A stretch of 64,000 nt of DNA from Pseudomonadales bacterium (GCA_029210125.1 JARGPR010000001.1:326812-390811); one strand, 5' to 3'; counted from the stretch's first letter, positions 2,526 through 64,000 are shown. The notes: generated by a model not told the origin, from the letters alone. Numbers and translations: made by a program.

Positions 2526-3740
2526 CTACTGACGATAGCTTTCCAAAAAATGCGCAATTTTTCCGATGGCGATTTCCAGCTCATCCTCCCGAGGTAAAAA
2601 CACCAATCTAAAGTGCTGGGTATCGGGCCAGTTAAAAGCGCTGCCCTGAACCACCAGAAGATGCTCCTGCCGCAGCAAGTCCAGTACCATTAATTCATCA
2701 TCTCTAATGGGATAAACATCCGGGTCTAGTTTGGGGAACAGGTAAAGCGCACCCTTCGGTTTTACACAACTTACACCAGGGATAGCGGTTAACAGCGCCC
2801 ATGCTCTGTCGCGCTGATCACGTAGCCTGCCACCGGGCAGGATTAGATCGTTAATGCTTTGGTAGCCACCCAGCGCGGTTTGAATCGCGTATTGCCCGGT
2901 TACGTTGCAGCATAAACGCATAGAGGAAAGCATATCGAGCCCTTCAATATAGTCTCTAGCTCGATGCTTTGCGCCACTTAAAATCATCCAGCCTACGCGA
3001 AAACCAGCGGATCGATAAGATTTGGATAGCCCGTTAAAAGTTACAAAAAATACGTCATCGGCAAGTGAAGCCGTAGGCGTATGGGCTACCTCATCGTAAA
3101 GAATCTTGTCATAAATTTCGTCAGAAAAAATAATCAAATCATGTTGGCGAGCCAATTCAACAATTTGTTCTAGTAGTTCTTTGCTGTACACAGCACCAGT
3201 AGGATTGTTTGGATTGATGATCACAATACCACGGGTATTGGGCGTGATTTTATTTTTGATATCATCGATATCCGGCTGCCAGTCTGCGGACTCATCACAT
3301 AAATAATGAACGGGTTTGCCACCGCTAAGGCTGACGGATGCGGTCCATAGTGGGTAATCCGGAGCAGGCAATAGAACTTCGTCGCCGCTATTAAGCAGCG
3401 CCTGCATTGCCATCTGAATCAGCTCGCTGGCACCGTTGCCCAGGTAGATATCGTCAATGGCTACGTCACTAATACCTAATCGCTGTGTTTCCTGCATCAC
3501 TGCTTTACGGGCAGAGTATATCCCCTTGGATTCTGAGTAGCCCTGGGCTGCCGGTAGGTTGCGGATCACGTCCATTACAATCTCTTCTGGCGCATCAAAG
3601 CCGAAGGGTGCCGGATTACCGATGTTGAGTTTGAGGATACGATGGCCATCCTCCTCCATAATATTGGCCTGTTGTAATACCGGGCCACGAATATCGTAGC
3701 AGACATCGGAGAGTTTGGTGGATTTCAAAAAATGTGACAT
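2526..3740 (-). CDS. alaA: PLP-dependent glutamate-pyruvate aminotransferase AlaA
   Basis: 404 aa. Long colinear similarity to E. coli AlaA/YfbQ as remembered (KLNIGNPAPFGFDAP, INPNNPTGAVYS, FNGLSKSYR). Confidence 0.85.
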   Translation of the reverse strand: MSHFLKSTKLSDVCYDIRGPVLQQANIMEEDGHRILKLNIGNPAPFGFDAPEEIVMDVIRNLPAAQGYSESKGIYSARKAVMQETQRLGISDVAIDDIYLGNGASELIQMAMQALLNSGDEVLLPAPDYPLWTASVSLSGGKPVHYLCDESADWQPDIDDIKNKITPNTRGIVIINPNNPTGAVYSKELLEQIVELARQHDLIIFSDEIYDKILYDEVAHTPTASLADDVFFVTFNGLSKSYRSAGFRVGWMILSGAKHRARDYIEGLDMLSSMRLCCNVTGQYAIQTALGGYQSINDLILPGGRLRDQRDRAWALLTAIPGVSCVKPKGALYLFPKLDPDVYPIRDDELMVLDLLRQEHLLVVQGSAFNWPDTQHFRLVFLPREDELEIAIGKIAHFLESYRQ

Positions 3741-6356: not shown

Positions 6357-8078
6357 ATGATTGATATTGAATCCATACTGCAAAATAAATTCCCTCAAAT
6401 GAGCATAAGTAAAGGGTGGTTCTCCCGTTCATTGCTTTACTTGCTAAGAAAGGTATTGAGAGAGCAGCAAATTAATCAATTTATTGAGCAAAACAGCGGT
6501 GCTGAAGGCGTTGATTTTATCGACAAAATATTCGCGAAATTCAATATAGGTTATACGCTTTCCAGCCAGGATCGTCTGAAAATACCAGAAAGCGGTGCGT
6601 TACTCATAGTGGCTAATCACCCGATTGGATCCATGGATGGCCTGGCTCTTATGCGGCTTATTTCAGAAGTACGGCCAGATGTTAAAGTCGTTGTAAATGA
6701 TTTGCTTGCCTATATTGAACCACTGCGCCCAATGATGCTGCCGGTTGATAATATGGGGAATAATACCAGCAAGCATGATTTAAAGAAGTTATACAGGGCG
6801 ATAAAAAATAATGAAGCGCTAATTTTTTTCCCCGCCGGTGAGGTTTCTCGCATGAACCCGTCCGGTGTGCGTGATAGCAAGTGGAATAGTGGTTTTTTAA
6901 AGATAGCCCAGCGTTTTAACGCACCTGTTTTACCTGTTCATATCGGCACACGAAACTCCTGGCTATTCTACTTTCTATCAACACTCAACAAGAGTTTTGG
7001 AACACTCCTCCTGGTTCGGGAAATGTTCAATAAGCAAAATACGATTTTCCCTATAAAAATAGGCGATATTTACGGTGGCGATTTGATCGGTAAAAAAGAT
7101 AAAACAGAAGAGTTAAAAGTGAGTGAAATTCGCAGCTCCGTCTACCGGCTCAATAAGCGCTCAAGCAACAAAAAAACAAAACTTAACAATTCACCCAATA
7201 CGATTTATGCACTACCAGAAAGCAAAAAACAGTTAAAAAAAGAGCTGCTCGAATCCCAAAAGTTGGGTCAATTTCGTGATGGTAAACTCATTTATCTGTA
7301 CGATTATTTTGAAAACTCCGCAGTCATGAGAGAAATTGGCCGCCTGCGAGAGGTCACCTTTCGGGCGGTAGGCGAGGGTAGTGGTCGGTGCCGTGATCTG
7401 GATACTTATGACCGCTACTATCGGCACATTGTGTTGTGGGATGACAATGATCTTGAGATTGTCGGCTCGTACCGTATTGGTGAGTGCCAACCTATGGTAA
7501 CCAAAGGCGGGTTGGAAAGCCTGTATGTAGACTCGCTGTTTGAGCTAAATGATTCGTTTCTGCCCTATATAGAACAGGGCATTGAGTTAGGTCGAAGTTT
7601 CGTGCAACCGCAATATTGGGGCAAGCGTAGCCTGGATTACCTCTGGCATGGCATTGGCGCCTACCTGAGCCAATACCCAGAGGTGAAATATATGTTTGGT
7701 CCTGTTTCCATCTCTAATGATTATTCAGAGCAGGCTAAACAAAAACTGGTGCGCTTTTATGCAGGCTATTTTGAAGACCAAAACGGTTTAGCCACGGCTA
7801 GAAACCCCTATCCCATCACGGAAAAATGGAAACCGGGGAATGATTTCCGGGAAGATTTTGTGGCACTGAAATCAAGTTTGAAGCAGTTGGGTTACTCAGT
7901 CCCCACGTTATTCAAACAGTACACCGAAGTTTGTGAGCATGAAGGCGTGCGATTTATCGATTTCAATGTGGATGCTGATTTTGGAAATTGTGTGGATGGT
8001 TTAATTCTGGTGGAGGTGGATAAACTTAAACCCGCCTCAATTAAACGTTATATGAGTAATCGACTGGATGTAGCCTGA
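6357..8078 (+). CDS. Bifunctional lysolipid O-acyltransferase (PlsC-like) + GNAT N-acyltransferase (OlsB-like), OlsF-like aminolipid synthase candidate
   Basis: 573 aa. The N-terminal half carries NHPIGSMDG and FPAGEVSR acyltransferase blocks. The C-terminal half carries REVTFRAVGEG..YRHIVLWD, typical of OlsB/hemolysin-like GNATs. Confidence 0.55.
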   Translation: MIDIESILQNKFPQMSISKGWFSRSLLYLLRKVLREQQINQFIEQNSGAEGVDFIDKIFAKFNIGYTLSSQDRLKIPESGALLIVANHPIGSMDGLALMRLISEVRPDVKVVVNDLLAYIEPLRPMMLPVDNMGNNTSKHDLKKLYRAIKNNEALIFFPAGEVSRMNPSGVRDSKWNSGFLKIAQRFNAPVLPVHIGTRNSWLFYFLSTLNKSFGTLLLVREMFNKQNTIFPIKIGDIYGGDLIGKKDKTEELKVSEIRSSVYRLNKRSSNKKTKLNNSPNTIYALPESKKQLKKELLESQKLGQFRDGKLIYLYDYFENSAVMREIGRLREVTFRAVGEGSGRCRDLDTYDRYYRHIVLWDDNDLEIVGSYRIGECQPMVTKGGLESLYVDSLFELNDSFLPYIEQGIELGRSFVQPQYWGKRSLDYLWHGIGAYLSQYPEVKYMFGPVSISNDYSEQAKQKLVRFYAGYFEDQNGLATARNPYPITEKWKPGNDFREDFVALKSSLKQLGYSVPTLFKQYTEVCEHEGVRFIDFNVDADFGNCVDGLILVEVDKLKPASIKRYMSNRLDVA

Positions 8079-8105
8079 CAATCAGCCTATTGAATCGCCA
8101 AGAGT

Positions 8106-8152
8106 TTGACCAACTGAACCACCCCTTAGGACGGGGTGGTTCAGTTGGTCAA
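8106..8152. terminator. Strong bidirectional hairpin
   Basis: Perfect 20-bp stem TTGACCAACTGAACCACCCC / GGGGTGGTTCAGTTGGTCAA with a 7-nt loop, between convergent genes. Confidence 0.65.
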
Positions 8153-8195
8153 CAAAACAATAGAGGGGCTGTTGAGTGACTGGTAGCCTGTCAAA

Positions 8196-9812
8196 TTAGG
8201 CTACGTTAAAACCTTCGTAACCCGTGTTTGCCTCCTTATCGCAGATTTCTCTATAGATTGGTGCACCACCCATATAAACGATGTAGCGTGGTTTATCTTT
8301 GCCCTCAACGTTTGAGTTTTGGCCAGAGATCCAGGAAGGAACCTTCATAAACATCGACATAGAAGCGGCTTCTACAACACCTTTAGTCCAGTCATTCTCG
8401 GACTGTTCTTTTGGTTCAATTTTATTGAGTTTATGCTCAGTCATGTACTGAATAGTGTCGCTAACCCATTCAACATTTTGCTCTATACAGCGGGGGATAT
8501 TACAGAGAGTCGCTGTATTTTGAGGGCCGACCAAAGTGAACATATTGGGGAAGCCGACAACCTGTATACCAAGATAGGTTCTAACCTCCTCATCCCATTT
8601 GTCCTTGAGTTTAGCGCCGCCTTCGCCACGAATATCGATGCGATCAAACGCCCCGGTGATGCCATCAAAACCCGTTGCATAGAACAGCATATCCAGCTCA
8701 TATTCTTTTTCGTCGGTTTTAACGCCCTTGGCCGTTATTCTCTCAATCGGATGATCCTTGACGTTTACCAGCTCGACATTGTCCTGGTTGTATACCTCGT
8801 AGTAATTGGTTTCAAGGGGTACACGCCTGGTGCCATAGCCATGATCGGTTGGGATCAGGTTTCGCGCAGTTTCGGGGTCATTTACACGTTGCCGAATTTT
8901 ATTGGCAATAAAGTCCGTCATATATTGATTGGCTTTATCATCCATCAAGGTGTCGTAATAGGCACCCACCCAAACACCAAAGCCAGGTTCAGAGTAAAGC
9001 TTTTCATAAAGTGCTTCGCGCTCCTCAGGCGTAGCATCATGGGCGCTGGTCATAACCGGAGAATGCAAAAAACAGCCGCTTGTTTCCAGGCAGGTTTTGA
9101 ATATTTCAGGATAACGTTTTTTGAGATCAGCCTGCTCTTCCGGCTTGATCTTGCTGTTGTTCAGCGGTGCGCACCAGTTGGGGCGGCGCTGGAACACCGT
9201 GAGGTGTTTGGCTGTTTTGGCCACCTCCTGAATAGTTTGAATGCCTGTTGCACCGGTGCCAATCACGCCAACACGTTTTCCTTCAAAACTAACCGGCTCA
9301 TGGGGCCAACGGGCCGTGTGCCAGGAATCACCCTTAAAGTCATCGATGCCGGGAATATTCGGCATAGTGGGTGCGGAGAGTGGCCCTATAGCCGTGATCA
9401 AGAACCGCCCATCAGCCTGGATACCGTCCTCCGTCTCAACCAACCATCGCCCGCTGGTATCGTTATAGGTCGCTGATTTTATTTTGCTATTGAATTGAAT
9501 ATCCTTGCGTAGATCGAACTTATCAGCAAAGTAATTCAGGTATCGAAGGGTCTCTGGTTGCCCGGCAAAATGTTCATCCCAGTCCCATTCCTCTAACAGC
9601 TCTTCCGAAAATGAATAGGCATAGCTGTAGCTCTCTGAATCAAAGCGTGCACCGGGGTAGCGGTTCCAATACCAGGTTCCGCCAACACCATCGCCGGTTT
9701 CAAAAACTCGAACCTTGAGCCCCTGTTGGCGAAGCTTGAGAAGTTGGTACATGCCGGAAATACCGGCTCCAATGATGATTGCATCAAATTGTTCTGCGTT
9801 ATTATTAGACAT
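8196..9812 (-). CDS. Baeyer-Villiger (type I flavin) monooxygenase
   Basis: 538 aa. GAGISG FAD fold, BVMO fingerprint FKGDSWHTARWP, and a second GTGATG NADPH fold. Confidence 0.85.
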   Translation of the reverse strand: MSNNNAEQFDAIIIGAGISGMYQLLKLRQQGLKVRVFETGDGVGGTWYWNRYPGARFDSESYSYAYSFSEELLEEWDWDEHFAGQPETLRYLNYFADKFDLRKDIQFNSKIKSATYNDTSGRWLVETEDGIQADGRFLITAIGPLSAPTMPNIPGIDDFKGDSWHTARWPHEPVSFEGKRVGVIGTGATGIQTIQEVAKTAKHLTVFQRRPNWCAPLNNSKIKPEEQADLKKRYPEIFKTCLETSGCFLHSPVMTSAHDATPEEREALYEKLYSEPGFGVWVGAYYDTLMDDKANQYMTDFIANKIRQRVNDPETARNLIPTDHGYGTRRVPLETNYYEVYNQDNVELVNVKDHPIERITAKGVKTDEKEYELDMLFYATGFDGITGAFDRIDIRGEGGAKLKDKWDEEVRTYLGIQVVGFPNMFTLVGPQNTATLCNIPRCIEQNVEWVSDTIQYMTEHKLNKIEPKEQSENDWTKGVVEAASMSMFMKVPSWISGQNSNVEGKDKPRYIVYMGGAPIYREICDKEANTGYEGFNVA

Positions 9813-10149
9813 AGGTATAGATTCCTTTATTTGATTATCCCTGATATAGAAATGATTATGGGCTACGCGTTATTTATTGTTGTTATTAGCTAAATCCGGT
9901 GCCATCTCCCAGTACTTGAATGAGTACCTGGATATGCCTGCCAAAAGAATAAACACCCCATACTCAGATGTCCATACAGGCCATATTTGTATGTGCCGGG
10001 TATTGATCAAGGTCAATTTACGCAAATACTCGTGAGCTGCGTGATCTTGGGCTGGAGGCTCCCATCAGCCCGTTGCATAGTCCGACGCCTTGTTTTCCCT
10101 TACACTGGTTGGCCATCAAGCCCAAATAACAATAACAGGGAGTTACCCA

Positions 10150-51935: not shown

Positions 51936-53483
51936 TCAAACGATCTTCGAGTCCATCTTACCCCAGTATCGATCCCGAACCAGACGTTTGTACATTTTCC
52001 CGTTTGGGTGGCGCGGTAACTCCGCGTCAAAATCTACCGACCGTGGACACTTCACATGGGATATGTGATCTTTACAGAACTGAATCAATTCCTCTGCAAA
52101 TTCGTCGGTCGCATCCGCCATATCCATCGGTTGAACGACCGCTTTAACTTCTTCGCCAAAGTCTTCGTTGGGTACACCAATAACAGCTACGTCGGCCACC
52201 TTTGGATGGGTCACCAGATGGTTTTCAACCTCTTGAGGGTAGATATTTACGCCACCAGAGATGATCATAAATGCTTTACGATCAGTCAAATATAGATAGC
52301 CATCTTCATCTACACGACCCACATCACCGAGGGTGCTCCACTCCGGATTGTTTGGATGATAGGAGTCTTTGGTTTTCTCAGGGTCATTGTGATAAGCAAA
52401 TGTCTGCCCACTTTCAAAGTAGATAGTACCAGCTTCGCCAACCGGAAGTTCATTGCCTTCGTCGTCGCAGATATGCATTCCGCCCATCGCGCTGATACCA
52501 ACTGAACCTTTGTGGTCCATCCATTCCTCCGGGCCAATTGCGGTACTGCCATTGCCCTCTGAACCGCCGTAGTATTCATAGATGATCAATCCCCACCACT
52601 CCATCATCTGCTCTTTGATTTTTACAGGGCAGGGGGCTGCCGCGTGGATTGCGCACTGGTGTGAAGACAGGTCGTATTTATTGCGGGTCTCTTCAGGCAT
52701 TTTCAGCATACGCACAAACATCGTTGGTACCCACTGGCTGTGGGTGACCTTGTGCTCTTCAATCAGTTTTAGTGACTCTTCGGCATCAAATTTACCCATG
52801 ATAATAACGGTGCCACCCACCGCCAATATACAGCGCGAGTAACCCAAAGGCGCGGCGTGATAGAGCGGAGCAGGGGAGAGATAAACGGTATTTTCATCAA
52901 AGCCATAACGCGGTGGCAGCATTTCGGTCATTCGATTGAGGGTTGTAATGGAGCCACCGGGAAGCGGTTTCCGTACACCCTTGGGTCGACCGGTTGTACC
53001 GGAAGAATAGAGCATTTCAGTCCCAGCAGATTCATCCGCGAGGGGTTCAATTGATTGCGCTGCACAGGCTGCCTCAAGGCCTTCATAGCCAGGAATGGGA
53101 TTATCGAGCATGAATTTGGCGGAAACGCCGGGCAGTTTATCTACCAGTTTTTCTGCCACGGCACGCATTTCAAGGCTGGTGACAAATGCCTTGGCACCAC
53201 AATCCGCAACAATATAGTCCACTTCATCTTCAGTAAGTTTATTGCTGATAGGAGTGAAATAAAGGCCGGCTCTGTGGGCGGCAGCAGCGATAATATGGAA
53301 CCATTTGTGATTTTCCATAAAGAAGGCCATGCCGTCGCCGGTTTGTAAGCCGGCTTCACGAAATACCCGGGAAAGCTGAATCGATTTATCGTTGAGTTCT
53401 TTGTAGCTGACACGCTCGCCGGTTTCAGCCATCACATAAGCGGTTTTATCCGGATTATTGGCGGCATGAATTGAAATATGCAT
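51936..53483 (-). CDS. AMP-dependent acyl-CoA synthetase (tandem paralog 1)
   Basis: 515 aa. YSSGTTGRPKGV, YYGGSEG, GD.GR.DEDGYLY..DR and the C-terminal ..PNGKMYKR. Confidence 0.85.
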   Translation of the reverse strand: MHISIHAANNPDKTAYVMAETGERVSYKELNDKSIQLSRVFREAGLQTGDGMAFFMENHKWFHIIAAAAHRAGLYFTPISNKLTEDEVDYIVADCGAKAFVTSLEMRAVAEKLVDKLPGVSAKFMLDNPIPGYEGLEAACAAQSIEPLADESAGTEMLYSSGTTGRPKGVRKPLPGGSITTLNRMTEMLPPRYGFDENTVYLSPAPLYHAAPLGYSRCILAVGGTVIIMGKFDAEESLKLIEEHKVTHSQWVPTMFVRMLKMPEETRNKYDLSSHQCAIHAAAPCPVKIKEQMMEWWGLIIYEYYGGSEGNGSTAIGPEEWMDHKGSVGISAMGGMHICDDEGNELPVGEAGTIYFESGQTFAYHNDPEKTKDSYHPNNPEWSTLGDVGRVDEDGYLYLTDRKAFMIISGGVNIYPQEVENHLVTHPKVADVAVIGVPNEDFGEEVKAVVQPMDMADATDEFAEELIQFCKDHISHVKCPRSVDFDAELPRHPNGKMYKRLVRDRYWGKMDSKIV

Positions 53484-53772: not shown

Positions 53773-55320
53773 TTAGACGATTTTGGAGTCCATCTTGCCC
53801 CAGTACCTGTCACGAACCAGGCGCTTATACATTTTGCCGTTCGGGTGACGTGGTAACTCAGCATCAAAATCTACTGAACGTGGGCACTTCACATGGGAGA
53901 TATGATCCTTGCAATACTGGATCAATTCCGCTGCAAATTCCTCGTTAGCATCCGCCATATCGACGGGTTGTATAACTGCTTTAACCTCTTCTCCGAAGTC
54001 TTCATTGGGCACACCAATGACTGCAACATCTGCAACTTTAGGGTGAGTCACCAGATGATTCTCAACTTCCTGTGGGTAGATATTGACACCACCGGAAATG
54101 ATCATAAATGCCTTACGGTCGGTCAAATAAAGGTAGCCATCTTCATCAACACGACCTACGTCACCGAGGGTGCTCCAATCGGGATGTTCCGGGTGGTAGC
54201 TGCCAGCGGTTTTTCCAGTATCGTTGTGATAGGTGAATACCACGCCACTTTCAAAATAGATGGTGCCCGGTTCGCCTGCTGGAAGCTCTTTGCCGTCTTC
54301 GCCGCAAATATGGATTGCTCCACCCGCGGATCGGCCAACAGAACCTTTGTGCTCCAGCCAGTCAGCAGAGTCAATAATGGTTGTACCATTACCTTCTGAG
54401 CCAGCGTAATACTCATGGATGATAGGGCCCCACCATTCAATCATCTGCTCTTTGATTTTAATCGGGCAGGGTGCTGCAGCGTGGATGGCAACCTGATGCG
54501 AAGAAAGGTCGTATTTAGTGCGAAGCTCAACAGGCTCTTTAAGGAACCGGACGAACATGGTCGGTACCCATTGGCTGCAGGTTACTTTGTATTTTTCAAT
54601 TAATCTCAACGCTTCATCAGTACCAAATTTGTCCATGATGATAACGGTACCGCCGACGGCCAAAATACAGCGTGAGTACCCTAGTGGTGCAGCGTGGTAC
54701 AGCGGTGCAGGACATAGATATACGGAGCTTTCATCAAAACCGTAACGAGGCGGTATAGTGTCGGTTAATGGTGAAGGTGAGCCCAGTGGAGCTCCTGTAA
54801 GTGGGCGTCGTACGCCCTTGGGGCGTCCAGTGGTACCGGACGAGTAAAGCATTTCAGAACCACAGGTTTCATCCGCGAGGGGTTCAGTAGATTGTTTAGC
54901 GGTAACCTCTTCAAGTGACTGATACCCATCAATGGTTCCATCCAACATGAATTTGTGCGACACGCCAGGCATCAGACTGTTCATTTCAGCCGCTAGTTCT
55001 TTGTATTCAGCTGAGGTGATAAACAGTTTTGCACCGCAGTCCGCAACAATATAGTCCACTTCTTCAGCGGTCAGCTTATTACTGATGGGGGTGAAATAAA
55101 GCCCAGCACGGTGTGCCGCACAGGCGATAATATGGAAATATTTGTGGTTTTCCAGATAGAAGGCAATTGCATCACCAACTTGTAGGCCGCATTCTCGAAA
55201 TAATCGAGACATCTGAATGGAGATATCGTTTAGCTCGCCAAAGGTAACGACTTCGCCAGTTGTTGCCATGATGTAGGCGGGTTTATCAGGGTTCTTTGCT
55301 GCGTGTATCGAAGGGTGCAT
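53773..55320 (-). CDS. AMP-dependent acyl-CoA synthetase (tandem paralog 2)
   Basis: 515 aa, colinear with paralog 1. The last ~135 residues are almost identical. Confidence 0.85.
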   Translation of the reverse strand: MHPSIHAAKNPDKPAYIMATTGEVVTFGELNDISIQMSRLFRECGLQVGDAIAFYLENHKYFHIIACAAHRAGLYFTPISNKLTAEEVDYIVADCGAKLFITSAEYKELAAEMNSLMPGVSHKFMLDGTIDGYQSLEEVTAKQSTEPLADETCGSEMLYSSGTTGRPKGVRRPLTGAPLGSPSPLTDTIPPRYGFDESSVYLCPAPLYHAAPLGYSRCILAVGGTVIIMDKFGTDEALRLIEKYKVTCSQWVPTMFVRFLKEPVELRTKYDLSSHQVAIHAAAPCPIKIKEQMIEWWGPIIHEYYAGSEGNGTTIIDSADWLEHKGSVGRSAGGAIHICGEDGKELPAGEPGTIYFESGVVFTYHNDTGKTAGSYHPEHPDWSTLGDVGRVDEDGYLYLTDRKAFMIISGGVNIYPQEVENHLVTHPKVADVAVIGVPNEDFGEEVKAVIQPVDMADANEEFAAELIQYCKDHISHVKCPRSVDFDAELPRHPNGKMYKRLVRDRYWGKMDSKIV

Positions 55321-56007: not shown

Positions 56008-57444
56008 CTACTCACTGTCTTCATCGGAACCATCCTCTATATTATCCTTTGCTGATAAGCCAAGCTCTTTGATCTTTCTGGTGAGCGTATTGCGGCCCCA
56101 GCCTAGTAAATCCGACGCATCCCGTTTTCGACCGGCGGTTTGCTTGAGGGCACTTTCAATCATAACCCGCTCGAATTGAGGTAGCACAGTATCGAGCAGA
56201 TCCTGCTTGCCCGCCGCCAGTTCACGCTCGACCCAAAGGCGTAGCGACTGCTGCCAGTTTTCGCCAATCGCTTCCTGATTGGTTTGTGTTTGTAATTCAG
56301 GAGGAAGATCGCTGATATGCACTTCTCGACCTGAGGCCATTACGGTGATCCAGCGGCATGTATTTTGTAGTTGCCGAACATTGCCGGGCCAGCTGAGGTT
56401 GCATAGGTACTCTTCAGTTTCTGGTTTGAGAACTTTAATCTCGACTTCAATCTCCTTTGCCGCACCTTGCAGAAAGTACTGGGTCAATTTAGGGATATCT
56501 TCCCGACGTTGTGCGAGTGTCGGTATATGTATGCGAATAACGTTAAGGCGATGGAACAGATCTTCTCTAAATCGACCCTGTTTGACCAGTTCTTCCAAAT
56601 CCTGATGGGTTGCTGCAATGATACGGACATTGGCTTTTTTCGGGGTATGGCCGCCAACACGGTAAAATTCGTTGTCGGCCAGTACTCTTAATAAACGAGT
56701 TTGGGTTTCTGCTGGCATGTCGCCAATTTCATCGAGGAACAGTGTGCCACCATCGGCTTGTTCAAAACGCCCAACGCGGTGCTGATTAGCGCCGGTAAAA
56801 GCACCTTTTTCATGTCCAAAAAGTTCTGATTCGACTAAATCTTTGGGGATGGCTGCCATGTTGAGGGCGATAAATGGATTACTTTTTCTGGGGCTGTGTC
56901 GGTGCAGGGCCAGTGCAACCAGCTCTTTACCAGTGCCGGACTCACCGTTGATCAATACGGTAATATTGGATTTTGAAAGTCGGCCAATTGCCCGAAATAC
57001 CTCCTGCATAGCTGGCGCTTCGCCAATGATCTCTTCATCCGGACTAATTACCGGGGTGTCATTGGTGTCCTGGTTTTCGCTGGCATGGGCCAGTGCGCGA
57101 CTAACGATATTGGTCGCATCATCAATATCAAAGGGTTTTGGTAAGTATTCAAAAGCACCACCCTGGTAGGCTGAAACGGCACTGTCGAGATCCGAGTGCG
57201 CGGTCATAATAATGACCGGCAGGTTGGGGAAGTTCTGGTTGATTTTTGCTAGTAATCCCAGTCCATCGGTACCCGGCATACGGATATCGCTGAGCAATAC
57301 GTCGGGTTTGTCGTGTTGTAGTTGCTCAAGCGCTGCATCGGCACTTTCAAAGCAGACTAGATCAAGCTCCGAGCTTTGTAGTGCTTTTTCTAATACCCAG
57401 CGAATCGATTTATCATCATCAATAATCCAGACCGTTTGTCGCAT
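56008..57444 (-). CDS. ntrC: Nitrogen regulation protein NR(I), sigma54-dependent response regulator NtrC
   Basis: REC (DDD..D..MPG), AAA+ ([26 protein letters not shown]) and a C-terminal HTH. Confidence 0.92.
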
Positions 57445-57512: not shown

Positions 57513-58580
57513 CTATCTTTGGATAGGCAGGTGGATTGAGAAGCGTGTGTGTCCGGGCCTGCTATCACATTCAATCGAGCCGTGGTGCTGATTGATGATA
57601 GATCGGCTTAGCGGTAGCCCAAGGCCGGTACCATTTGCTCGGCCACTGATCATTGGGTAGAAGATGCTGTCGATCAGTTTTTCGTTGATGCCCGGACCAT
57701 TATCGATCACCTCGATCAGGCAGGTTAGCCGGTTACGGGTGGTACCGATGGTAAATTGCCTTAACGTTCTTGTGCGTAGGGTGATTTCGGGGTTTAGTGA
57801 TGGATCATCGCATCGCTCCAGTGACTCCATTGCATTACGAACGATATTCAAAATTGCCTGGATCAGCAGTTCTCGATCTGCTGTGACTTCAGGAATACTG
57901 GGGTCATAGTCGCGTATAAAATGAATTGGCTTTTGGGATTCCACTTCAACCAACAATCGCACGCGTTCGAGTACCTCGTGGATTGAAATAGGTCCCATAT
58001 TGGGCAAATTATTGGGGCCGAGCATTCTATCCACTAAATTCCGTAACCTGTCGGCTTCCTCTATTATTACCTGGGTGTACTCTTTATCTTGCTCCGGCAA
58101 CTGGCGCGCAAGTAGCTGGGCGGCACCACGAATGCCACCTAACGGGTTTTTAATTTCGTGCGCAAGACCGCGTATCAGGGTTTTATTGGCCTGGTTTGAA
58201 AACACCGACGCTTCCTCCCGAGCAATGCGCAGCAATCTATCAAGAGGCTGGATTTCCATCAGTAGCGCGGTTCCAGATGAGGATGCTATGGGTGTAACGG
58301 TATAGTCAACAGTGATGGTTTTATCATTCGTCAGGGTGATTTTTGTTCTTCGTTTGCTAAATGGGTTGTTAAAGGCGATCGCGTTGTTAAGTGCTTGGAG
58401 TGACTCTTCTGTTTCATGCATAACATTTGAAATAGCTGTACCCACCACGCGGTTGCCACTCACATCCAGTAGGTTTTCCGCCGCTGGGTTGATGTACTGA
58501 AGCTCTAAGTCTGAACTAAGCAGCAGTACTGAGGTAGAAAGGTCTTCAAGGATCAGCTGGTAAATTTCAGCAGTATTCAT
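57513..58580 (-). CDS. ntrB: Nitrogen regulation sensor kinase NtrB (NR-II)
   Basis: PAS N-terminus, H-box GLAHEIKNPLGGIRGAAQLL, N box and G boxes (DNGPGI, GTGLGL). Confidence 0.9.
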   Translation of the reverse strand: MNTAEIYQLILEDLSTSVLLLSSDLELQYINPAAENLLDVSGNRVVGTAISNVMHETEESLQALNNAIAFNNPFSKRRTKITLTNDKTITVDYTVTPIASSSGTALLMEIQPLDRLLRIAREEASVFSNQANKTLIRGLAHEIKNPLGGIRGAAQLLARQLPEQDKEYTQVIIEEADRLRNLVDRMLGPNNLPNMGPISIHEVLERVRLLVEVESQKPIHFIRDYDPSIPEVTADRELLIQAILNIVRNAMESLERCDDPSLNPEITLRTRTLRQFTIGTTRNRLTCLIEVIDNGPGINEKLIDSIFYPMISGRANGTGLGLPLSRSIINQHHGSIECDSRPGHTRFSIHLPIQR

Positions 58581-58793: not shown

Positions 58794-59372
58794 TTAATGA
58801 AGGATGGAATGTTGTTTGACGTGCACCTGGACTGGAGAGCTGGTTTTTATAATGGAGTTATCAGAGGTATCGATAATTTGTACGCTGAGTTGATGCGTTC
58901 CCCGATATATTTCAGTGAGCTCGAAGTCGGTTTCCTGCTGAGGTTCTGAAACAGTAGCACCGTCAATTAAAACCTGGATCCGGTGGTTTTCCTGGAGTGG
59001 TGGAGCAATAGATACTGAGATCGACAGATTACCGGAAGTGTTACGAATAACCTGATCTTTCGATGGAGACTGAATCAACAGAGTACTGTAATTCACTGGT
59101 TGATGGGTTTGTGCAGGTGCTGCTTCAAATGATTCCTCGGTGTTTGCCTTCGGAAAACTATGGGTCTCCAGGGGAGGAAGCACAATAGGTTTGGAGCTTT
59201 TTGTTTTGATGTCGCTGAACACGGGCGTACCCGCTTTGTTGGTGGATTTATAAATTTCTGAAGATGCAAGAGTTGAGAAAGCGAGGGTGCCTATCAAGGT
59301 AGCCACCGCGAGTGGGCGTCTCCAGCAAATTTGGTGTAGAGGTCGGTCAAAAATCTGTTTCTTGATTTTCAT
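58794..59372 (-). CDS. DUF4124-domain periplasmic protein
   Basis: Signal peptide followed by the IYKSTNKAGTPVFSD motif (DUF4124 pattern iYkw.d..G...fsD). Confidence 0.6.
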   Translation of the reverse strand: MKIKKQIFDRPLHQICWRRPLAVATLIGTLAFSTLASSEIYKSTNKAGTPVFSDIKTKSSKPIVLPPLETHSFPKANTEESFEAAPAQTHQPVNYSTLLIQSPSKDQVIRNTSGNLSISVSIAPPLQENHRIQVLIDGATVSEPQQETDFELTEIYRGTHQLSVQIIDTSDNSIIKTSSPVQVHVKQHSILH

Positions 59373-59818: not shown

Positions 59819-60055
59819 TTACTTATCTTCGTGTATCGCTTCGATGCTTAATGTAATAATTCGTCCGGATTGCTCACTGCCGAGCAACTTATGGCCATTG
59901 ATTCGGCACCAGGCTGGAATATCACTTAAAACGCCGGGATCAGTGCAGGTAACCTCCAGAATATCCCCTGATTCGAGGCCAGCGATTTTGTCCTGGGTTT
60001 TAATCACCGGCATAGGACAGAGCAGGTTTTCTGCGTTTAATTGGTGGGTGCTCAT
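59819..60055 (-). CDS. TusA-family sulfurtransferase
   Basis: 78 aa. Active-site L.CPMP.. motif (LLCPMPVIK). Confidence 0.8.
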   Translation of the reverse strand: MSTHQLNAENLLCPMPVIKTQDKIAGLESGDILEVTCTDPGVLSDIPAWCRINGHKLLGSEQSGRIITLSIEAIHEDK

Positions 60056-61092
60056 ATGTACCAGCTTTGGGGGATATCGGTTGGTATGATCGGTTCAACT
60101 TCCAAAATTTTAGATTGGCCATCGGGAAATGTTGCTTTGACCTGTACGTTGGTTTCTTGCTTGCCCTGGCTAAAGCGTGCGGCGATTCGAGCGGCTAATT
60201 CAATATCATCCGCATCGGGCTCGCCGTCAATCAAGGTTAGCGGCCCATTGTGATTGACGGTGCGTAGATGGAGGAATTGCTTCCGGTAACCCTCAAGGAA
60301 GTTGTTTTCTCCCTCTTCGCGGCTAACGATCATCTTGAAGTTTGGTGAGGGTCGAATATGGCGGCCAATTTTTAACAACATGATGTCATCCAGTTCGTAG
60401 CGTTTTTCACCACGAAACTGCCAAAGGTCAGCAAGTTTTTTCGAGTAAGCCTCATCGGTCAGAAAACAACAGCCACCAGCGGGTTGGGCAAACTCTTCAA
60501 ATCCAAGTTGGCTAGCTAGCTCAATTTGAGGTTTACGATTGCGGCCACTAAAGCCGTGGAGTTGCTCGCGGTTGATCCAGCCCTCTCGTTCCGGAAGCGT
60601 TGCGGGGAGGTTTTGCGCACAAAGCGGTCGCAGTAAACGGTCGTCAGCACCAGATTCTCTGGCGATGATAGGCATGGTTTCCTTGCGTTGTGATTTTGGT
60701 CGTTGACCAATCACCTCGCCGGTAATAATAAAATCAAAGCCATTGTCGTTGGCCCAGTCCAGCGCTTTTTGTACCATAAAAATTTTGCAGTCAAGGCATG
60801 GATTAAGGTGTGCGCCGTAACCATGTTTCGGGTTGATCACAATATCTTTGTATTCTTCTGATATATCGATGATATGGAGTTTCATCGATAGCTGTTCAGC
60901 GCTCCACAGGGCGTTGTTGCGCTTGGGCTTTGCCTTGTCTTTCTTGCGGATTGCATGGGTGTGGCCTTCTACACAGAAACCGGTGTAAAAGTTGATGCCT
61001 TCAACGTGAATGCCCTGATTTTGAATAACTCTGGCGGCCAGAAGAGAATCCAGGCCGCCGGAAATCAGCGCGACTGCTTTGCGTGTGGTCAT
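60052..61092 (-). CDS. PP-loop ATPase, ThiI/MnmA-like (thiouridylase-type)
   Basis: 346 aa. PP-loop ALISGGLDS and conserved Cys clusters NPCLDCK and GGCCF. A 4-nt overlap with the tusA-like gene. Confidence 0.65.
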   Translation of the reverse strand: MTTRKAVALISGGLDSLLAARVIQNQGIHVEGINFYTGFCVEGHTHAIRKKDKAKPKRNNALWSAEQLSMKLHIIDISEEYKDIVINPKHGYGAHLNPCLDCKIFMVQKALDWANDNGFDFIITGEVIGQRPKSQRKETMPIIARESGADDRLLRPLCAQNLPATLPEREGWINREQLHGFSGRNRKPQIELASQLGFEEFAQPAGGCCFLTDEAYSKKLADLWQFRGEKRYELDDIMLLKIGRHIRPSPNFKMIVSREEGENNFLEGYRKQFLHLRTVNHNGPLTLIDGEPDADDIELAARIAARFSQGKQETNVQVKATFPDGQSKILEVEPIIPTDIPQSWYI

Positions 61093-61286
61093 AATAAGAG
61101 AGGTCTAATTAGCTCGGCTCAACTTGAGCCTAAGTAAGGTGAATAACAACGCCGATTGTAACAGAAAGCGTACATCTGTACGTATTAGACGAGGGTGTTT
61201 TACCGGATTTGTGTGCTACCTGCGTCCCGAACAAATTGGCCCGGCCAGCGCGTATTTCGCGTATTGCTTGGGATGATTAGTCGAGG

Positions 61287-61316
61287 TTCAAAATTTGTAC
61301 TAAATAGATGTATAAT
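61287..61316 (+). promoter_or_regulatory. Candidate sigma70 promoter for the 61.5-kb operon
   Basis: TTCAAA-18 nt-TATAAT. Confidence 0.3.
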
Positions 61317-61502
61317 TTGCGGTATTCTAAAAAAGTGTCAGTATTTTATACAAATTGGTCGGCTGTTTGGGGTTGGTTGTGTTTAACATGTTGATTGTAA
61401 AGGAATAAGTTATTTTGGCGTAGTTTTTGCAATTATCCACTTATAGTTATAGATCGGCGTACCACGGGTTCGCGGATTAACAATTTATTGAGCGAGATTA
61501 AA

Positions 61503-62351
61503 ATGAGTGACAAATTTCCAAGCCAGAATGATAAGCAAGATGAACAAAAAAGTGCTGTGAATCAGGCTGTAGATGTGCCTGAATCCGCACATAACTCCTC
61601 ACGCAGAAGTTTTGCTAAGGCAGGTGTTGTTGCTCCAATTGTGTTGAGTGTGGGTGCTCGTCCCGCGTTTGCCAATATGTGTAGTGTATCCGGTGGTGGT
61701 AGCCCCGGTTCGGGACAAATAGAAATAACCTGTTCTGGTAAGACACCTGGCTACTGGAAAACACACCCGGAAGCGTGGTCGTCTGTTGTTGAGGCAGGTG
61801 GCGAAGATATAGCAGGTATTGAGTCACTGAGTACAGGTGCTTGTTCCCCTACCGACCAAGGTTCTAGCAAATCAAACTGTAAAGTTTGGCTTAATGATGG
61901 TACAAAATTTGGAGACGTATTCTCTGGCGGAGATAGCTTGGTGAGTAACGCTAAGCCAGGCATAGTTACGCCCACTACCGTCAATGGAGTGACCAGCTAT
62001 GAGGCCACAAAAGCGGGTGATTATTATGTGCTTGCTGGAGCAACCGATACTCGTATGAGTATGATGCAGGTGCTTTGGTTGGAAAAAAACCATAGCCTTA
62101 AGGGTACTGTTTCAGTTCAGTATGCATTTCACTTGGTTGCTGCCTTTCTAAATGCACTTGAAGACCCTGAGGGTTATGGTTACAACGGTCTAGGGATTAT
62201 CACGTTGCATGAGAGTGCGATGGCTGGTTTCCCGATTCCTCCAGGAATTACTGACCTTGAACATTTGAAGGACGTTCTGGACTATATGAATAATCGATCA
62301 GAGGGAGGCTTTCAAGGGCCAGTGCCTTTCCCATTCTCTGGTACCCCTTAA
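61503..62351 (+). CDS. Tat-signal exported protein of unknown function
   Basis: Twin-arginine motif SRRSFAKAG, h-region and AFA|N cleavage site, preceded by a ~35-aa hydrophilic n-region. Gly/Ser/Cys-rich mature N-terminus. The start could also be the TTG at 61488. Confidence 0.55.
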   Translation: MSDKFPSQNDKQDEQKSAVNQAVDVPESAHNSSRRSFAKAGVVAPIVLSVGARPAFANMCSVSGGGSPGSGQIEITCSGKTPGYWKTHPEAWSSVVEAGGEDIAGIESLSTGACSPTDQGSSKSNCKVWLNDGTKFGDVFSGGDSLVSNAKPGIVTPTTVNGVTSYEATKAGDYYVLAGATDTRMSMMQVLWLEKNHSLKGTVSVQYAFHLVAAFLNALEDPEGYGYNGLGIITLHESAMAGFPIPPGITDLEHLKDVLDYMNNRSEGGFQGPVPFPFSGTP

Positions 62352-62353
62352 TT

Positions 62354-62647
62354 ATGGCGCCAACGAATATCTCTTGGTGTCGTTCAGATCAATTCGATTG
62401 GAATTCCAGGCAGTGGGCTGATGGCTCACTGCTCTATAATAAAAATTCAGGTGATACTCATTATCTGGATCCGTTATCGATGCGAATTTTAGAGTTGTTA
62501 GAAACGAACCGTTTTAGTGTTGAGGAAATCCGAGGTGACTTGGTGAGTCAACCCGAAGAGGCTATAGTGATACCGCATAGCAAGTTTGCACTGGAAACCA
62601 TAATTGCAGACTTGGAGCGTATTGGTTTAATTGAAGTTTCTTCTTGA
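62354..62647 (+). CDS. PqqD-family protein (RiPP recognition element type; HPr-rel-A-system-like)
   Basis: 97 aa. ..LLYNKNSGDTHYLDPLSMRILELLE....S..EI fits the PqqD pattern. Starts 2 nt after the upstream stop. Confidence 0.7.
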   Translation: MAPTNISWCRSDQFDWNSRQWADGSLLYNKNSGDTHYLDPLSMRILELLETNRFSVEEIRGDLVSQPEEAIVIPHSKFALETIIADLERIGLIEVSS

Positions 62648-63552
62648 ATATATCTGCAGTTACAGAAAATCAGCTCTCTAAACGATTAAGCGGCCCGGGC
62701 CTCATTATTCAGGCGGGTCCCTTCGTTACGCGTCTCCATTCTTCAATTCTGCATTTGGTTAAAGGTATTCACGGCCTTTATGCCGATTATCCTATTATTG
62801 ATGAAGATCTATTTGTGGATTTTCACGTCCAGGTTAATCCCCCCGTCGGGCTTCGTCGCCGGTTTCGGCCGCAGGCACGTTTCCGGTTTGATAATTACAA
62901 ACCCTTTACACCTCTTCCCATTGATCAGGCGATGCCGATTTTTGAATGGGGACTCAACTGGTGTATAGCCAATTACGCTCATCAGTACCTGATTATTCAT
63001 TCTGCCGTTGTTGAACGAAATGGCGTTTCTATCATATTTCCAGCCCCCCCTGGTTCCGGCAAGAGTACGCTATGCGCAGGGTTGGTATCTAAAGGATGGC
63101 GATTGTTGTCTGATGAGATGGCATTGGTAGATCGTAATGACCAGCAATTAGTGCCGGTACCAAGGCCGGTAAGCCTCAAAAACCAATCGATCGATATTAT
63201 TCGAAATTACGCACCCGATCAGTATGTGGGAAGCTCCACTGAGGGCACTACAAAAGGTACCATTGCGCATATGGCGGTACCTGGGAGTTCTATTCTGCGT
63301 CAGCATGAAAAAGTTAAACCGGGTTTGATTGTATTCCCGAAATATATCGCTGGCGCTGAGCCAGCCCTGCAATCAATGCCAAAACCCCTGGCGGGTATTC
63401 GACTTATTGAAAACTGTTTCAACTATCATGTGCTCGGGGAAGAGGGCTTTAATATGATTGCCGGGCTGGTTGATACCAGTAAGTGTTTCGAATTTAGCTA
63501 TTCACAACTGGACGATGCACTGCAAATCTTTAATGAGTTATCCGAGCAATGA
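62644..63552 (+). CDS. HprK-related kinase (HPr kinase C-terminal-domain homolog)
   Basis: 302 aa. P-loop PAPPGSGKSTLCAGLVSKGWRLLSDEMALV resembles HprK G.SG.GKSE..L.L...GH.LV.DD. TTG start overlaps the PqqD stop (TTGA). Confidence 0.7.
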   Translation: MNISAVTENQLSKRLSGPGLIIQAGPFVTRLHSSILHLVKGIHGLYADYPIIDEDLFVDFHVQVNPPVGLRRRFRPQARFRFDNYKPFTPLPIDQAMPIFEWGLNWCIANYAHQYLIIHSAVVERNGVSIIFPAPPGSGKSTLCAGLVSKGWRLLSDEMALVDRNDQQLVPVPRPVSLKNQSIDIIRNYAPDQYVGSSTEGTTKGTIAHMAVPGSSILRQHEKVKPGLIVFPKYIAGAEPALQSMPKPLAGIRLIENCFNYHVLGEEGFNMIAGLVDTSKCFEFSYSQLDDALQIFNELSEQ

Positions 63553-64000
63553 ACCAGGACTCAGGATTGCGCGGCTATCCGCTTTTACTTCATGTGTTGG
63601 TGAACCCGAATGCGGTGAGTGGTCTTGGCGTAACCCAATGGAATGATTTGATTCGGCTGGCACGGGTAGCCGATCTGTTGGCTAATCTATACGCTACATT
63701 TGAGCAACTTGACCTGTTAAAAACGATTCCCGCAAAACCTTTACTGCACCTTGAATCCGCTCATACCCTGACCAATAAGCATGAGCACACCATCGGCTGG
63801 GAAGTGATACAAATTAACGAAGCACTCGGGAAGCTCGAGTGTCCCGTGGTTTTATTGAAGGGTGCTGGTTATCTGTTACAGGGGCTGAATGCCTCGAAGG
63901 GGCGGGTGTTTCACGATGTGGATGCTATGGTTCCGAAGGCTCGTATTGATGAAGCTGAATTCGAGTTGAAAGATAACGGCTGGTTAGGGGTTAAGCAGGA
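63549..64000 (+). CDS. Nucleotidyltransferase-family protein (PF14907-like), 3'-truncated by the window end
   Basis: Not in the ORF track because it runs off the end. ATG overlaps the kinase stop (ATGA). LLKGAGYLL......R.FHDVDAMV resembles the uncharacterised NTP_transf_5 pattern. Confidence 0.55.
   Translation, partial: MNQDSGLRGYPLLLHVLVNPNAVSGLGVTQWNDLIRLARVADLLANLYATFEQLDLLKTIPAKPLLHLESAHTLTNKHEHTIGWEVIQINEALGKLECPVVLLKGAGYLLQGLNASKGRVFHDVDAMVPKARIDEAEFELKDNGWLGVKQ

Follow-up and report, generated by a model that had tools for sequence, protein, structure and literature searches.

What do the enzymes encoded at the end of a 64,000-nucleotide stretch of DNA from a Pseudomonadales bacterium (GCA_029210125.1 JARGPR010000001.1:326812-390811; hereafter the window, with positions counted from its first letter) act on? 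The stretch closes on genes for a PqqD-family peptide chaperone, an HPr-kinase-related kinase and a PF14907-type nucleotidyltransferase (NTase), preceded by a gene for a protein with a predicted twin-arginine translocation (Tat) signal, here called X. In our best reading, the window ends partway through a sigma-54-dependent operon, X-PqqD-HprK_A-NTase, of which it contains the first three and a half genes; this operon is the complete form of the "HPr-rel-A system" of NCBIfam. An earlier note on this DNA had proposed that the exported protein is the substrate of a phosphorylating or nucleotidyl-type module. This is the best-supported reading, because profile hidden Markov models (HMMs) match the enzymes, X and the enzymes co-occur almost universally in the loci compared, and no lasso-peptide or other known core of a pathway for peptides that are ribosomally synthesised and modified after translation (RiPPs) is seen in the sequence past position 64000. 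We consider it somewhat probable that X undergoes chaperone-guided Ser phosphorylation, extension of the phosphate by the NTase and then Tat export, a proposal built by analogy with linear polyphosphorylated peptides (LPPs) and pseudomycoidin and from the conservation pattern of X.

The operon and its linkage across loci

The operon consists of four open reading frames (ORFs), whose coordinates and catalytic motifs are as follows:

61503 (ATG)..62351, + strand: ORF1, gene X; TAA stop, 282 aa; alternative TTG start at 61488 (287 aa)
62354 (ATG)..62647, + strand: ORF2, PqqD-family chaperone, 97 aa (TIGR04353)
62644 (TTG)..63552, + strand: ORF3, HprK-related kinase A, 302 aa (TIGR04352)
63549 (ATG)..64000, cut by the window end, + strand: ORF4, PF14907 nucleotidyltransferase
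63043-63069, + strand: kinase P-loop A134-PPGSGKST-142, with the S156-D-E158 motif after it
63915-63923, + strand, inside the window: ORF4 D123-x-D125, which forms the catalytic motif with K104-G105 (also inside the window)

ORF1 and ORF2 are spaced by 2 nucleotides, ORF2 and ORF3 share a TTGA overlap (4 nucleotides), and ORF3 and ORF4 share an ATGA overlap; these junctions agree with the tight packing on the + strand described in the earlier note. Four back-to-back ORFs with HMM matches down to E 1e-118 cannot be a chance arrangement, and the minus-strand ORFs over the operon are short shadow ORFs of at most 77 aa. ORF1 was read earlier as a 287-aa protein; the true start is most likely ATG 61503, giving 282 aa. 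We number ORF1 from this ATG because the codon and the preceding GAGCGAGAT are kept in five related contigs (alignment of upstream regions) and because gene calls on identical or related contigs start there. No Rfam family was found in 60900-64000, no PADLOC defence model was matched by any of the four operon proteins, and scans for sigma-70 promoters and terminators stayed at background level. Recent horizontal acquisition was considered and is unsupported: GC content is uniform (0.45-0.48) over 54-64 kb, and the locus is syntenic in its clade.

The profiles identify all three enzyme-module proteins, in line with the family guesses made earlier from motifs. ORF3, proposed to be an HPr-kinase-type P-loop protein, matches TIGR04352 (HprK_rel_A) over its full length (394.2 bits, cutoff 200, E 2.6e-118), and PF07475 and the HPr kinase model TIGR00679 weakly. 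Its P-loop APPGSGKST and S-D-E motif are invariant in 30 homologues. An AlphaFold2 (AF2) model of the kinase (pLDDT 92) matches ATP-dependent phosphoenolpyruvate (PEP) carboxykinase (ATP-PEPCK; E 5e-7) and HprK/P (E 6e-4), two enzymes that share the known PEPCK/HprK fold; a phmmer match to HprK/P chain 1jb1 has E 0.006. ORF4, which had been taken for an uncharacterised-nucleotidyltransferase-type protein running off the end, matches PF14907 (NTP_transf_5, E 3e-22) and is 371 aa long on an identical contig (L001, 6073-7188). Residues K104, G105, D123, D125, D178, H180 and H181 are invariant in 60 NTase homologues, and the protein has the features of Pol-beta-type enzymes, namely an hG[GS]-type motif (K104-G105) and DxD carboxylates. 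Judged by these residues, the kinase and the NTase look active.

ORF2, in which a PqqD pattern had been seen, scores above the cutoff of TIGR04353 (PqqD_rel_X, "HPr-rel-A system PqqD family peptide chaperone"; 39.6 bits, cutoff 35), and its match to the Pfam PqqD model is weak (E 0.067). PF05402 is matched by 10 of 20 members of the ORF2 family (best E 6e-8), and the ORF2 profile weakly matches the RiPP recognition element (RRE) of the lasso protein TfuB1 (6jx3_B, E 0.43). These matches support membership of the PqqD family, and ORF2 is predicted to be an RRE-type peptide chaperone. Across homologous loci, identity to the window's version is highest for the kinase, lower for the NTase, lower again for the PqqD protein and lowest for X; the last two diverge together, as expected for a recognition pair. 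The kinase family alone comprises at least 8,000 sequence clusters. An apparent natural PqqD::kinase fusion (P0120, 398 aa) was set aside as evidence, its junction being frameshift-like and an in-frame fusion occurring in 0 of 87 loci.

We compared the 80 closest of more than 521 kinase loci (kinase relatives of 47-85% identity, from Beta- and Gammaproteobacteria, Malonomonas and one Rhodobacterales metagenome-assembled genome [MAG]) and clustered all of their ORFs. Genes in high-GC loci were called by custom scripts, and gene order was read from HMM matches to every stop-to-stop ORF. In 82 of 87 loci, which span kinase identities of 47-96% and several proteobacterial classes, the four genes lie in the order X-PqqD-kinase-NTase on a single strand; the co-occurrence of the exported protein with the three-gene cassette, proposed earlier as a check, is therefore borne out. 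The gene directly upstream of PqqD clusters with ORF1, and ORF1 aligns directly to distant X proteins (blastp E 1e-14 to 1e-6). The order fails at two contig ends (L005, L044), in L037 and L077, where probable frameshifts have fragmented X or the NTase, and in L046. In the last, from a Nitrosomonadaceae MAG, the kinase and NTase (7886-9936) have neither X nor PqqD upstream and may be a decayed or rearranged cassette. No other candidate ORF recurs in the operon, either on L001 or in the ORF clustering of the 80 distant loci. Both the kinase family and the X family are found in Proteobacteria of environmental importance, among them Massilia, Thiobacillus, Nitrotoga, Nitrosomonadales and marine Pseudomonadales.

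Contig L001, 14 kb long, also carries the sequence past the window end. Besides completing ORF4, it shows a 128-aa glyoxalase/VOC-family gene (7205-7591, + strand), 17 nucleotides past the NTase stop and with weak FosA-like matches, followed by convergent genes for a diacylglycerol kinase, endonuclease III and an inositol monophosphatase. This gene content places the end of the operon after the NTase. The VOC gene is present in L004, L006 and L007 and absent from L002 and L003, and it probably lies outside the core unit because only some clade members have it. On L001 we found no Asn-synthetase-like cyclase, transglutaminase-like B2 protease, radical SAM enzyme, YcaO protein, ABC exporter or small precursor ORF. 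The standard lasso cluster that, according to the earlier note, would have made this a known class is thus not found there. Syntenic contigs of related Pseudomonadales MAGs likewise lack lasso genes, no lasso-type gene recurs beside the cassette in the 80 distant loci, and an LppS-type archaeal signal peptidase I and an MsbA-like exporter are absent from L001 and the syntenic contigs.

Protein X

ORF1 matches no Pfam or NCBIfam model. A single-sequence search, with 12 close relatives that all come from syntenic MAGs, made it look confined to its clade, an impression that clustering of gene neighbourhoods and searches with profiles reversed. Searched with a profile, 1.84 billion representatives yielded 6,655 X proteins at E<=1e-3 and 2,570 at E<=1e-10, mostly 180-250 aa long. 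None of the 48 members tested matches a Pfam family, and the members match no NCBIfam family except for one borderline TAT-signal match. The protein divides into these parts:

61503..61673, + strand: signal/leader, residues 1-57; variable acidic n-region (1-33), RR, h-region and c-region RPAFA with an AxA cleavage motif
61602-61607, + strand: twin arginines R34-R35, invariant in 67-71 sequences
61674..61733, + strand: mature N-terminal tail, residues 58-77 (NMC60-SV-S63-GGG-S67-...-C77), with invariant Cys-x2-Ser-x3-Ser...Cys; proposed modification sites
61734..62306, + strand: folded domain, residues ~78-268; begins G-x-[ST]-P-G-Y-W...W-P and contains H-x-V-A-A-x-L-N

The clean twin-arginine signal and the Gly/Ser/Cys-rich mature start that had been reported for ORF1 can be read directly in the sequence: S-R-R-S-F-A-K is followed by the hydrophobic stretch AGVVAPIVLSVGA, by RPAFA|N and by a Cys/Ser/Gly-rich stretch. 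SRRSFAK, AGVVAPIVLSVGA and RPAFA are all present, and the RR pair is invariant across the family; ORF1 is a putative Tat substrate, its export being predicted from the motif. The family consensus of the signal is ...SRR[RK][FL]x[KR]AGLGASGV[LI]LTLASRPV[LW][AG], that is, a leader SRR[RK][FL]x[KR]AGLGASGVLLTLASRPVLA without YxxP. After the signal, the consensus continues as xx-C-[ST]-P-S-G-xx-S-G-N-x-S-x-H-G-x(3-6)-C-x-G-x-SPGYW-x(4-7)-WP. Residues R34-R35, C60, S63, S67, C77, W92, H210 and N217 are invariant or nearly so in 67-71 X sequences.

Conservation is distributed unevenly along X. Mean pairwise identity, calculated with the close clade excluded, is 16% in the n-region, 47% from RR to the c-region, 44% in the first ~35 mature residues, 22% in the middle, 36% in the helical region and 26% at the C-terminus. 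A signal peptide as the best-conserved part of a protein is unusual and suggests that it is read by a specific partner. The earlier idea that the long hydrophilic n-region serves as a leader runs against these values, the n-region being the least and the RR-to-c-region the most conserved segment; if there is a leader, it would be the h/c-region of the Tat signal. In an AF2 model of X (48-sequence alignment), residues 1-57 are disordered, residues 58-75 have low to moderate confidence, and residues ~76-268 form a confident mixed alpha/beta domain (pLDDT mostly ~90), for which Foldseek returned no PDB match with E<1.

The ending PFPFSGTP, pointed out earlier, is present in ORF1 and is specific to two close relatives rather than a family feature. 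X C-termini fall into two subtypes, vary and rarely end in Ser, for which reason a C-terminal Ser was rejected as the kinase target. One 808-aa protein of the representative library (P0181) consists of six tandem folded X domains, each spanning "GC.PGFW..WP" to "LN.G.CP[LF]", and has neither a Tat leader nor a Ser tail; the leader and Ser/Cys tail are thus a separable N-terminal module. The first Cys of each P0181 repeat and the Cys of its C-terminal "CP" may form a disulfide. The window's ORF1 has lost this C-terminal Cys. Because X has two Cys and two Ser that are invariant, we also considered lanthionine-type chemistry, in which Ser phosphorylation would be followed by elimination and Cys addition; with neither a lyase nor a cyclase present, the idea is speculation.

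Putative promoter and genomic context

The sigma-54 element and the contexts described in this section were absent from the earlier note. The relevant sites and neighbouring genes are the following:

61416..61431, + strand: sigma-54 (-24/-12) promoter-like element TGGCGTAGTTTTTGCA, 72 nucleotides upstream of ATG 61503
61332..61352, + strand: upstream block AAAGTGTCAGTATTTTATACA, ~65-85 nucleotides upstream of the -24 element, nearly invariant; may be an upstream activating sequence or IHF-type site
61155..61166, + strand: upstream block ATTGTAACAGAA, invariant in the five-contig alignment; may be an activator-binding site
2674-2689, - strand: the other TGGYRYN5TTGCW match, TGGTACTGGACTTGCT, inside or beside an ORF at 2526-3740 (-)
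56008-57444, - strand: ntrC (TIGR01818, 749 bits)
57513-58580, - strand: ntrB (NF008293, 367 bits)
58794-59372, after ntrB: gene for a DUF4124-like 192-aa protein

The pattern TGGYRYN5TTGCW matches only twice in the 64-kb window, and one of the two matches is TGGCGTAGTTTTTGCA, which is conserved in the clade alignment of upstream regions (five related contigs). Both upstream blocks sit in the same 400-nucleotide intergenic region. Scored with a simple weighted consensus and at the threshold chosen, an equivalent element lies 40-120 nucleotides upstream of X in 66 of 84 loci, compared to 11% of random windows; the other loci mostly show matches close to the threshold at this same spacing.

In half of the loci compared (43 of 86), the cassette is embedded in an XrtA/PEP-CTERM exopolysaccharide cluster; the cluster genes were checked with NCBIfam (PrsT, PrsK, chain-length determinant, tyrosine autokinase, export protein, outer-membrane protein, ATPase and glycosyltransferase). 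The window's locus lies outside any such cluster: its neighbours are ntrC, ntrB, the DUF4124 gene, tusA, a thiI-like gene and housekeeping genes, and neither here nor elsewhere in the clade do polysaccharide genes occur within ~7-8 kb of the cassette, which stands by itself. ntrC and ntrB are ~3-5.5 kb upstream of the cassette on the opposite strand, and 20 of the 86 loci are beside ntrB/glnA. In Thiobacillus-type loci the cassette is next to ntrBC-glnA on the other side of the ntr cluster than in the window, and because of these opposite positions the two juxtapositions look independent. They hint that the cassette is under NtrC control.

Several neighbours deserve mention in their own right. 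A TusA-like sulfur carrier (78 aa, 59819-60055, - strand) overlaps by 4 nucleotides a 346-aa ThiI/MnmA-like PP-loop ATPase (60052-61092, - strand), which scores far below the ThiI and MnmA cutoffs and has an NFACT-R_2 domain in precomputed Pfam. This uncharacterised thiolation pair is conserved throughout the clade and divergent from the cassette. Farther away, two tandem 515-aa ORFs (51936-53483 and 53773-55320, both - strand) are paralogous AMP-binding (acyl-CoA-synthetase-type) enzymes by synteny with L002-L006. In Oxalobacteraceae (e.g., L047, L084 7322-8146 and L032), a secreted trypsin/HtrA-like serine protease of ~270 aa without PDZ and an XrtA-system polysaccharide export protein are encoded immediately upstream of X and on its strand. 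The protease, whose family is found in 37 loci, might process X.

A candidate mechanism, its alternatives and known systems

From the analogies and the conservation pattern, we infer the role of X as substrate, the residues modified, the chemistry and the binding of the signal peptide by the PqqD protein. We propose that X would be synthesised with its twin-arginine signal peptide, whose h/c-region the PqqD-type element would bind, so that the Tat signal doubles as a RiPP-style leader. Binding would keep X in the cytoplasm and offer its N-terminal tail to the enzymes. The HprK-like P-loop kinase would phosphorylate S63 and/or S67, a few residues past the signal-peptidase site, and the PF14907 NTase would extend the phosphate by attaching a hexose or a nucleotide through a phosphodiester link. 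Tat would then export the modified, folded X, and a housekeeping signal peptidase I would cleave after AFA57. A Tat rather than a general-secretion (Sec) route would be expected because tailoring of X would require ATP/NTP from the cytoplasm and an interval after translation. The gene identities, catalytic motifs and gene order at this locus, its sigma-54 element and its genomic contexts are observations, as is the pattern in X, in which conservation is higher in the h/c-region (47%) and the tail (44%) than in the folded domain (22-36%); this last favours X as substrate.

Several points weigh on the other side. The 80 loci are the closest relatives among more than 521 matches, and the universality of X for the whole kinase family is unproven. 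The window's PqqD protein is barely over the NCBIfam cutoff and under that of Pfam. TIGR01409 scored one member of the X family and not ORF1, the Tat assignment being made from the motif and its conservation. The X leader lacks the [Y/W]xxP motif of lasso and LPP RREs, and the NTase homologue LppN was without activity in the LPP reconstitution (PMC13381572). X is a folded protein of ~220 aa and no peptide; a role as a functional partner, for instance an exported enzyme or a binding protein, would fit it equally well. Its conserved Cys, His and Trp could, instead of marking places of modification, belong to a disulfide or to a site for a metal or cofactor.

The thought that X is a partner can be developed into an alternative, which we judge rather unlikely: X would be a co-regulated exported protein working in the periplasm on, or together with, the product of the trio, and the trio would act on a peptide encoded elsewhere or on a sugar, lipid or polysaccharide intermediate of exopolysaccharide synthesis. 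The location of half of the loci inside XrtA/PEP-CTERM polysaccharide clusters would suit this, as would the autonomous fold of X (~190 residues, also found as tandem repeats without the Ser tail) and the NTase chemistry, which is unsettled even in characterised systems. Yet PqqD/RRE domains are peptide binders, the operon has no other conserved candidate ORF, and in the window and its clade the cassette is found with no polysaccharide genes nearby. A mere periplasmic partner would also hardly explain why conservation peaks on the signal h/c-region and on the Ser/Cys tail by the cleavage site.

That same conserved h/c-region would suit a signal-binding chaperone in a second sense, that of Tat proofreading and cofactor loading. 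The PqqD protein would then act like TorD or NapD, and the kinase and NTase would attach a nucleotide-derived group through a Ser phosphodiester, as CitG/CitX do for the acyl carrier protein of citrate lyase, or aid metal loading on the invariant Cys/His, making X a periplasmic cofactor protein. C60, C77, H210, W92 and N217 are invariant, and Tat is the typical route for proteins that bear cofactors. Against this, no cofactor-binding motif can be recognised in X, its fold has no match, and the closest characterised relatives of the enzymes carry out Ser phosphorylation and phosphate extension on precursors rather than cofactor synthesis. We regard this explanation, which largely overlaps with X as a phosphorylation substrate and departs from it chiefly in what the adduct is and what it is for, as improbable. 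Finally, PqqD, an HprK-like kinase and PF14907 are typical of paeninodin-like lasso clusters, and the cassette might be part of, or a satellite to, a RiPP class already known, for example the phosphorylated lasso peptides of the paeninodin type, with its core genes outside the window. The 14 kb of L001 have no cyclase, B2 protease, ABC exporter or small precursor, the syntenic contigs are alike in this, and no such gene recurs beside the cassette in the 80 distant loci; this possibility is effectively refuted.

Returning to X as the substrate, we can put the proposal in its fullest form as a very widespread sigma-54-controlled pathway in which a Tat signal doubles as a RiPP-type leader for the phosphodiester-linked Ser decoration of a folded exported protein of ~200 aa. 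We hold this form only tentatively, as possible rather than probable. If true, it would for the first time connect RiPP recognition machinery with Tat export in nature, a Tat signal acting as recognition leader; it would supply the long-missing substrate of the "HPr-rel-A system"; and it would extend Ser-polyphosphate/phosphoglycosyl chemistry from Bacillota peptides to exported proteobacterial proteins. In PEP-CTERM organisms, decorated X could act in exopolysaccharide or floc-matrix assembly. The function of the system would be connected with control by sigma-54/NtrC or PrsR and with PEP-CTERM exopolysaccharide and the formation of flocs. With X as an obligate fourth member carrying invariant serines by the cleavage site, an unannotated cassette becomes a testable hypothesis. 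The uncharted ground is large, given the size of the kinase family and the 6,655 X representatives without a family model.

Among known systems, the HPr-rel-A system is the one to which the locus belongs, since each of the two equivalog models is matched above its cutoff, one by ORF3 and one by ORF2. What the database offers is a bare name with no substrate, chemistry or literature attached; X upstream has no model, and PF14907 completes the four-gene unit. Searches of the literature library on the names TIGR04352, TIGR04353 and HPr-rel-A found no paper on the system; others found nothing linking exosortase with HPr kinase, nothing relevant linking PEP-CTERM with PqqD, and no natural RiPP precursor with a Tat signal.

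Tat proofreading chaperones such as TorD, DmsD and NapD are small proteins that bind a Tat signal and delay export until maturation is done. The proposed logic is the same here, with no sequence or family relationship: the binder is of the PqqD/RRE type, and covalent tailoring would take the place of cofactor insertion. Bufferins are RiPP-like small folded proteins with conserved Cys and Sec signals that are modified in the cytoplasm and exported by housekeeping machinery (PMC11626156). X resembles them as a small RiPP-like folded protein with conserved Cys and a general export signal, whereas bufferins use Sec rather than Tat, are modified by MNIO/DUF2063 enzymes that make thiooxazoles, and can dispense with the signal peptide for modification (PMC11626156).

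Closest in enzymology are two systems that make the earlier description of the cassette as having no known product or chemistry only half true, as the same enzyme trio is characterised in Bacillota (PMC13381572, PMC6993621). In the LPP pathway, the precursor, 35-200 aa long, is bound at its leader by a discrete RRE (Popov et al. 2026, PMC13381572), and the HprK-like LppK polyphosphorylates Ser3 of the core, a few residues past the leader cleavage site (PMC13381572). The leader is removed by a signal-peptidase-I-type enzyme, polysaccharide loci surround the clusters, the clusters also encode LppN, of the PF14907 type, which was silent in the heterologous host, and LPPs are reported as restricted to Bacillota (PMC13381572). 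Common to both are a separate RRE, a kinase resembling HprK, an uncharacterised NTP transferase and a long precursor, the RRE and the precursor (X) being predicted in the present case. The cassette here, in contrast, has no dedicated SipW-like peptidase and no MsbA-like exporter; the LPP leader motif YxxPxVLxHQxIxFETxxS is not in X, whose leader is a twin-arginine signal; and the "core" is a folded protein of ~220 aa, under a sigma-54 promoter, in Proteobacteria. In pseudomycoidin biosynthesis, PsmK phosphorylates Ser, and the PF14907-type PsmN is required to add one or two hexoses to the phosphate (PMC6993621). The likeness to paeninodin and pseudomycoidin lies in an HPr-kinase homologue that phosphorylates a precursor Ser before export and in the PF14907-type NTase (PsmN), whereas the present cassette lacks both a macrolactam synthetase and a B2 protease, and its proposed target is not a C-terminal Ser. 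The locus therefore stands outside the LPP and lasso families and yet plausibly works like them. Its enzyme logic is already known; what would be new is the substrate class (a folded Tat protein), the type of leader, the export route and the regulation.

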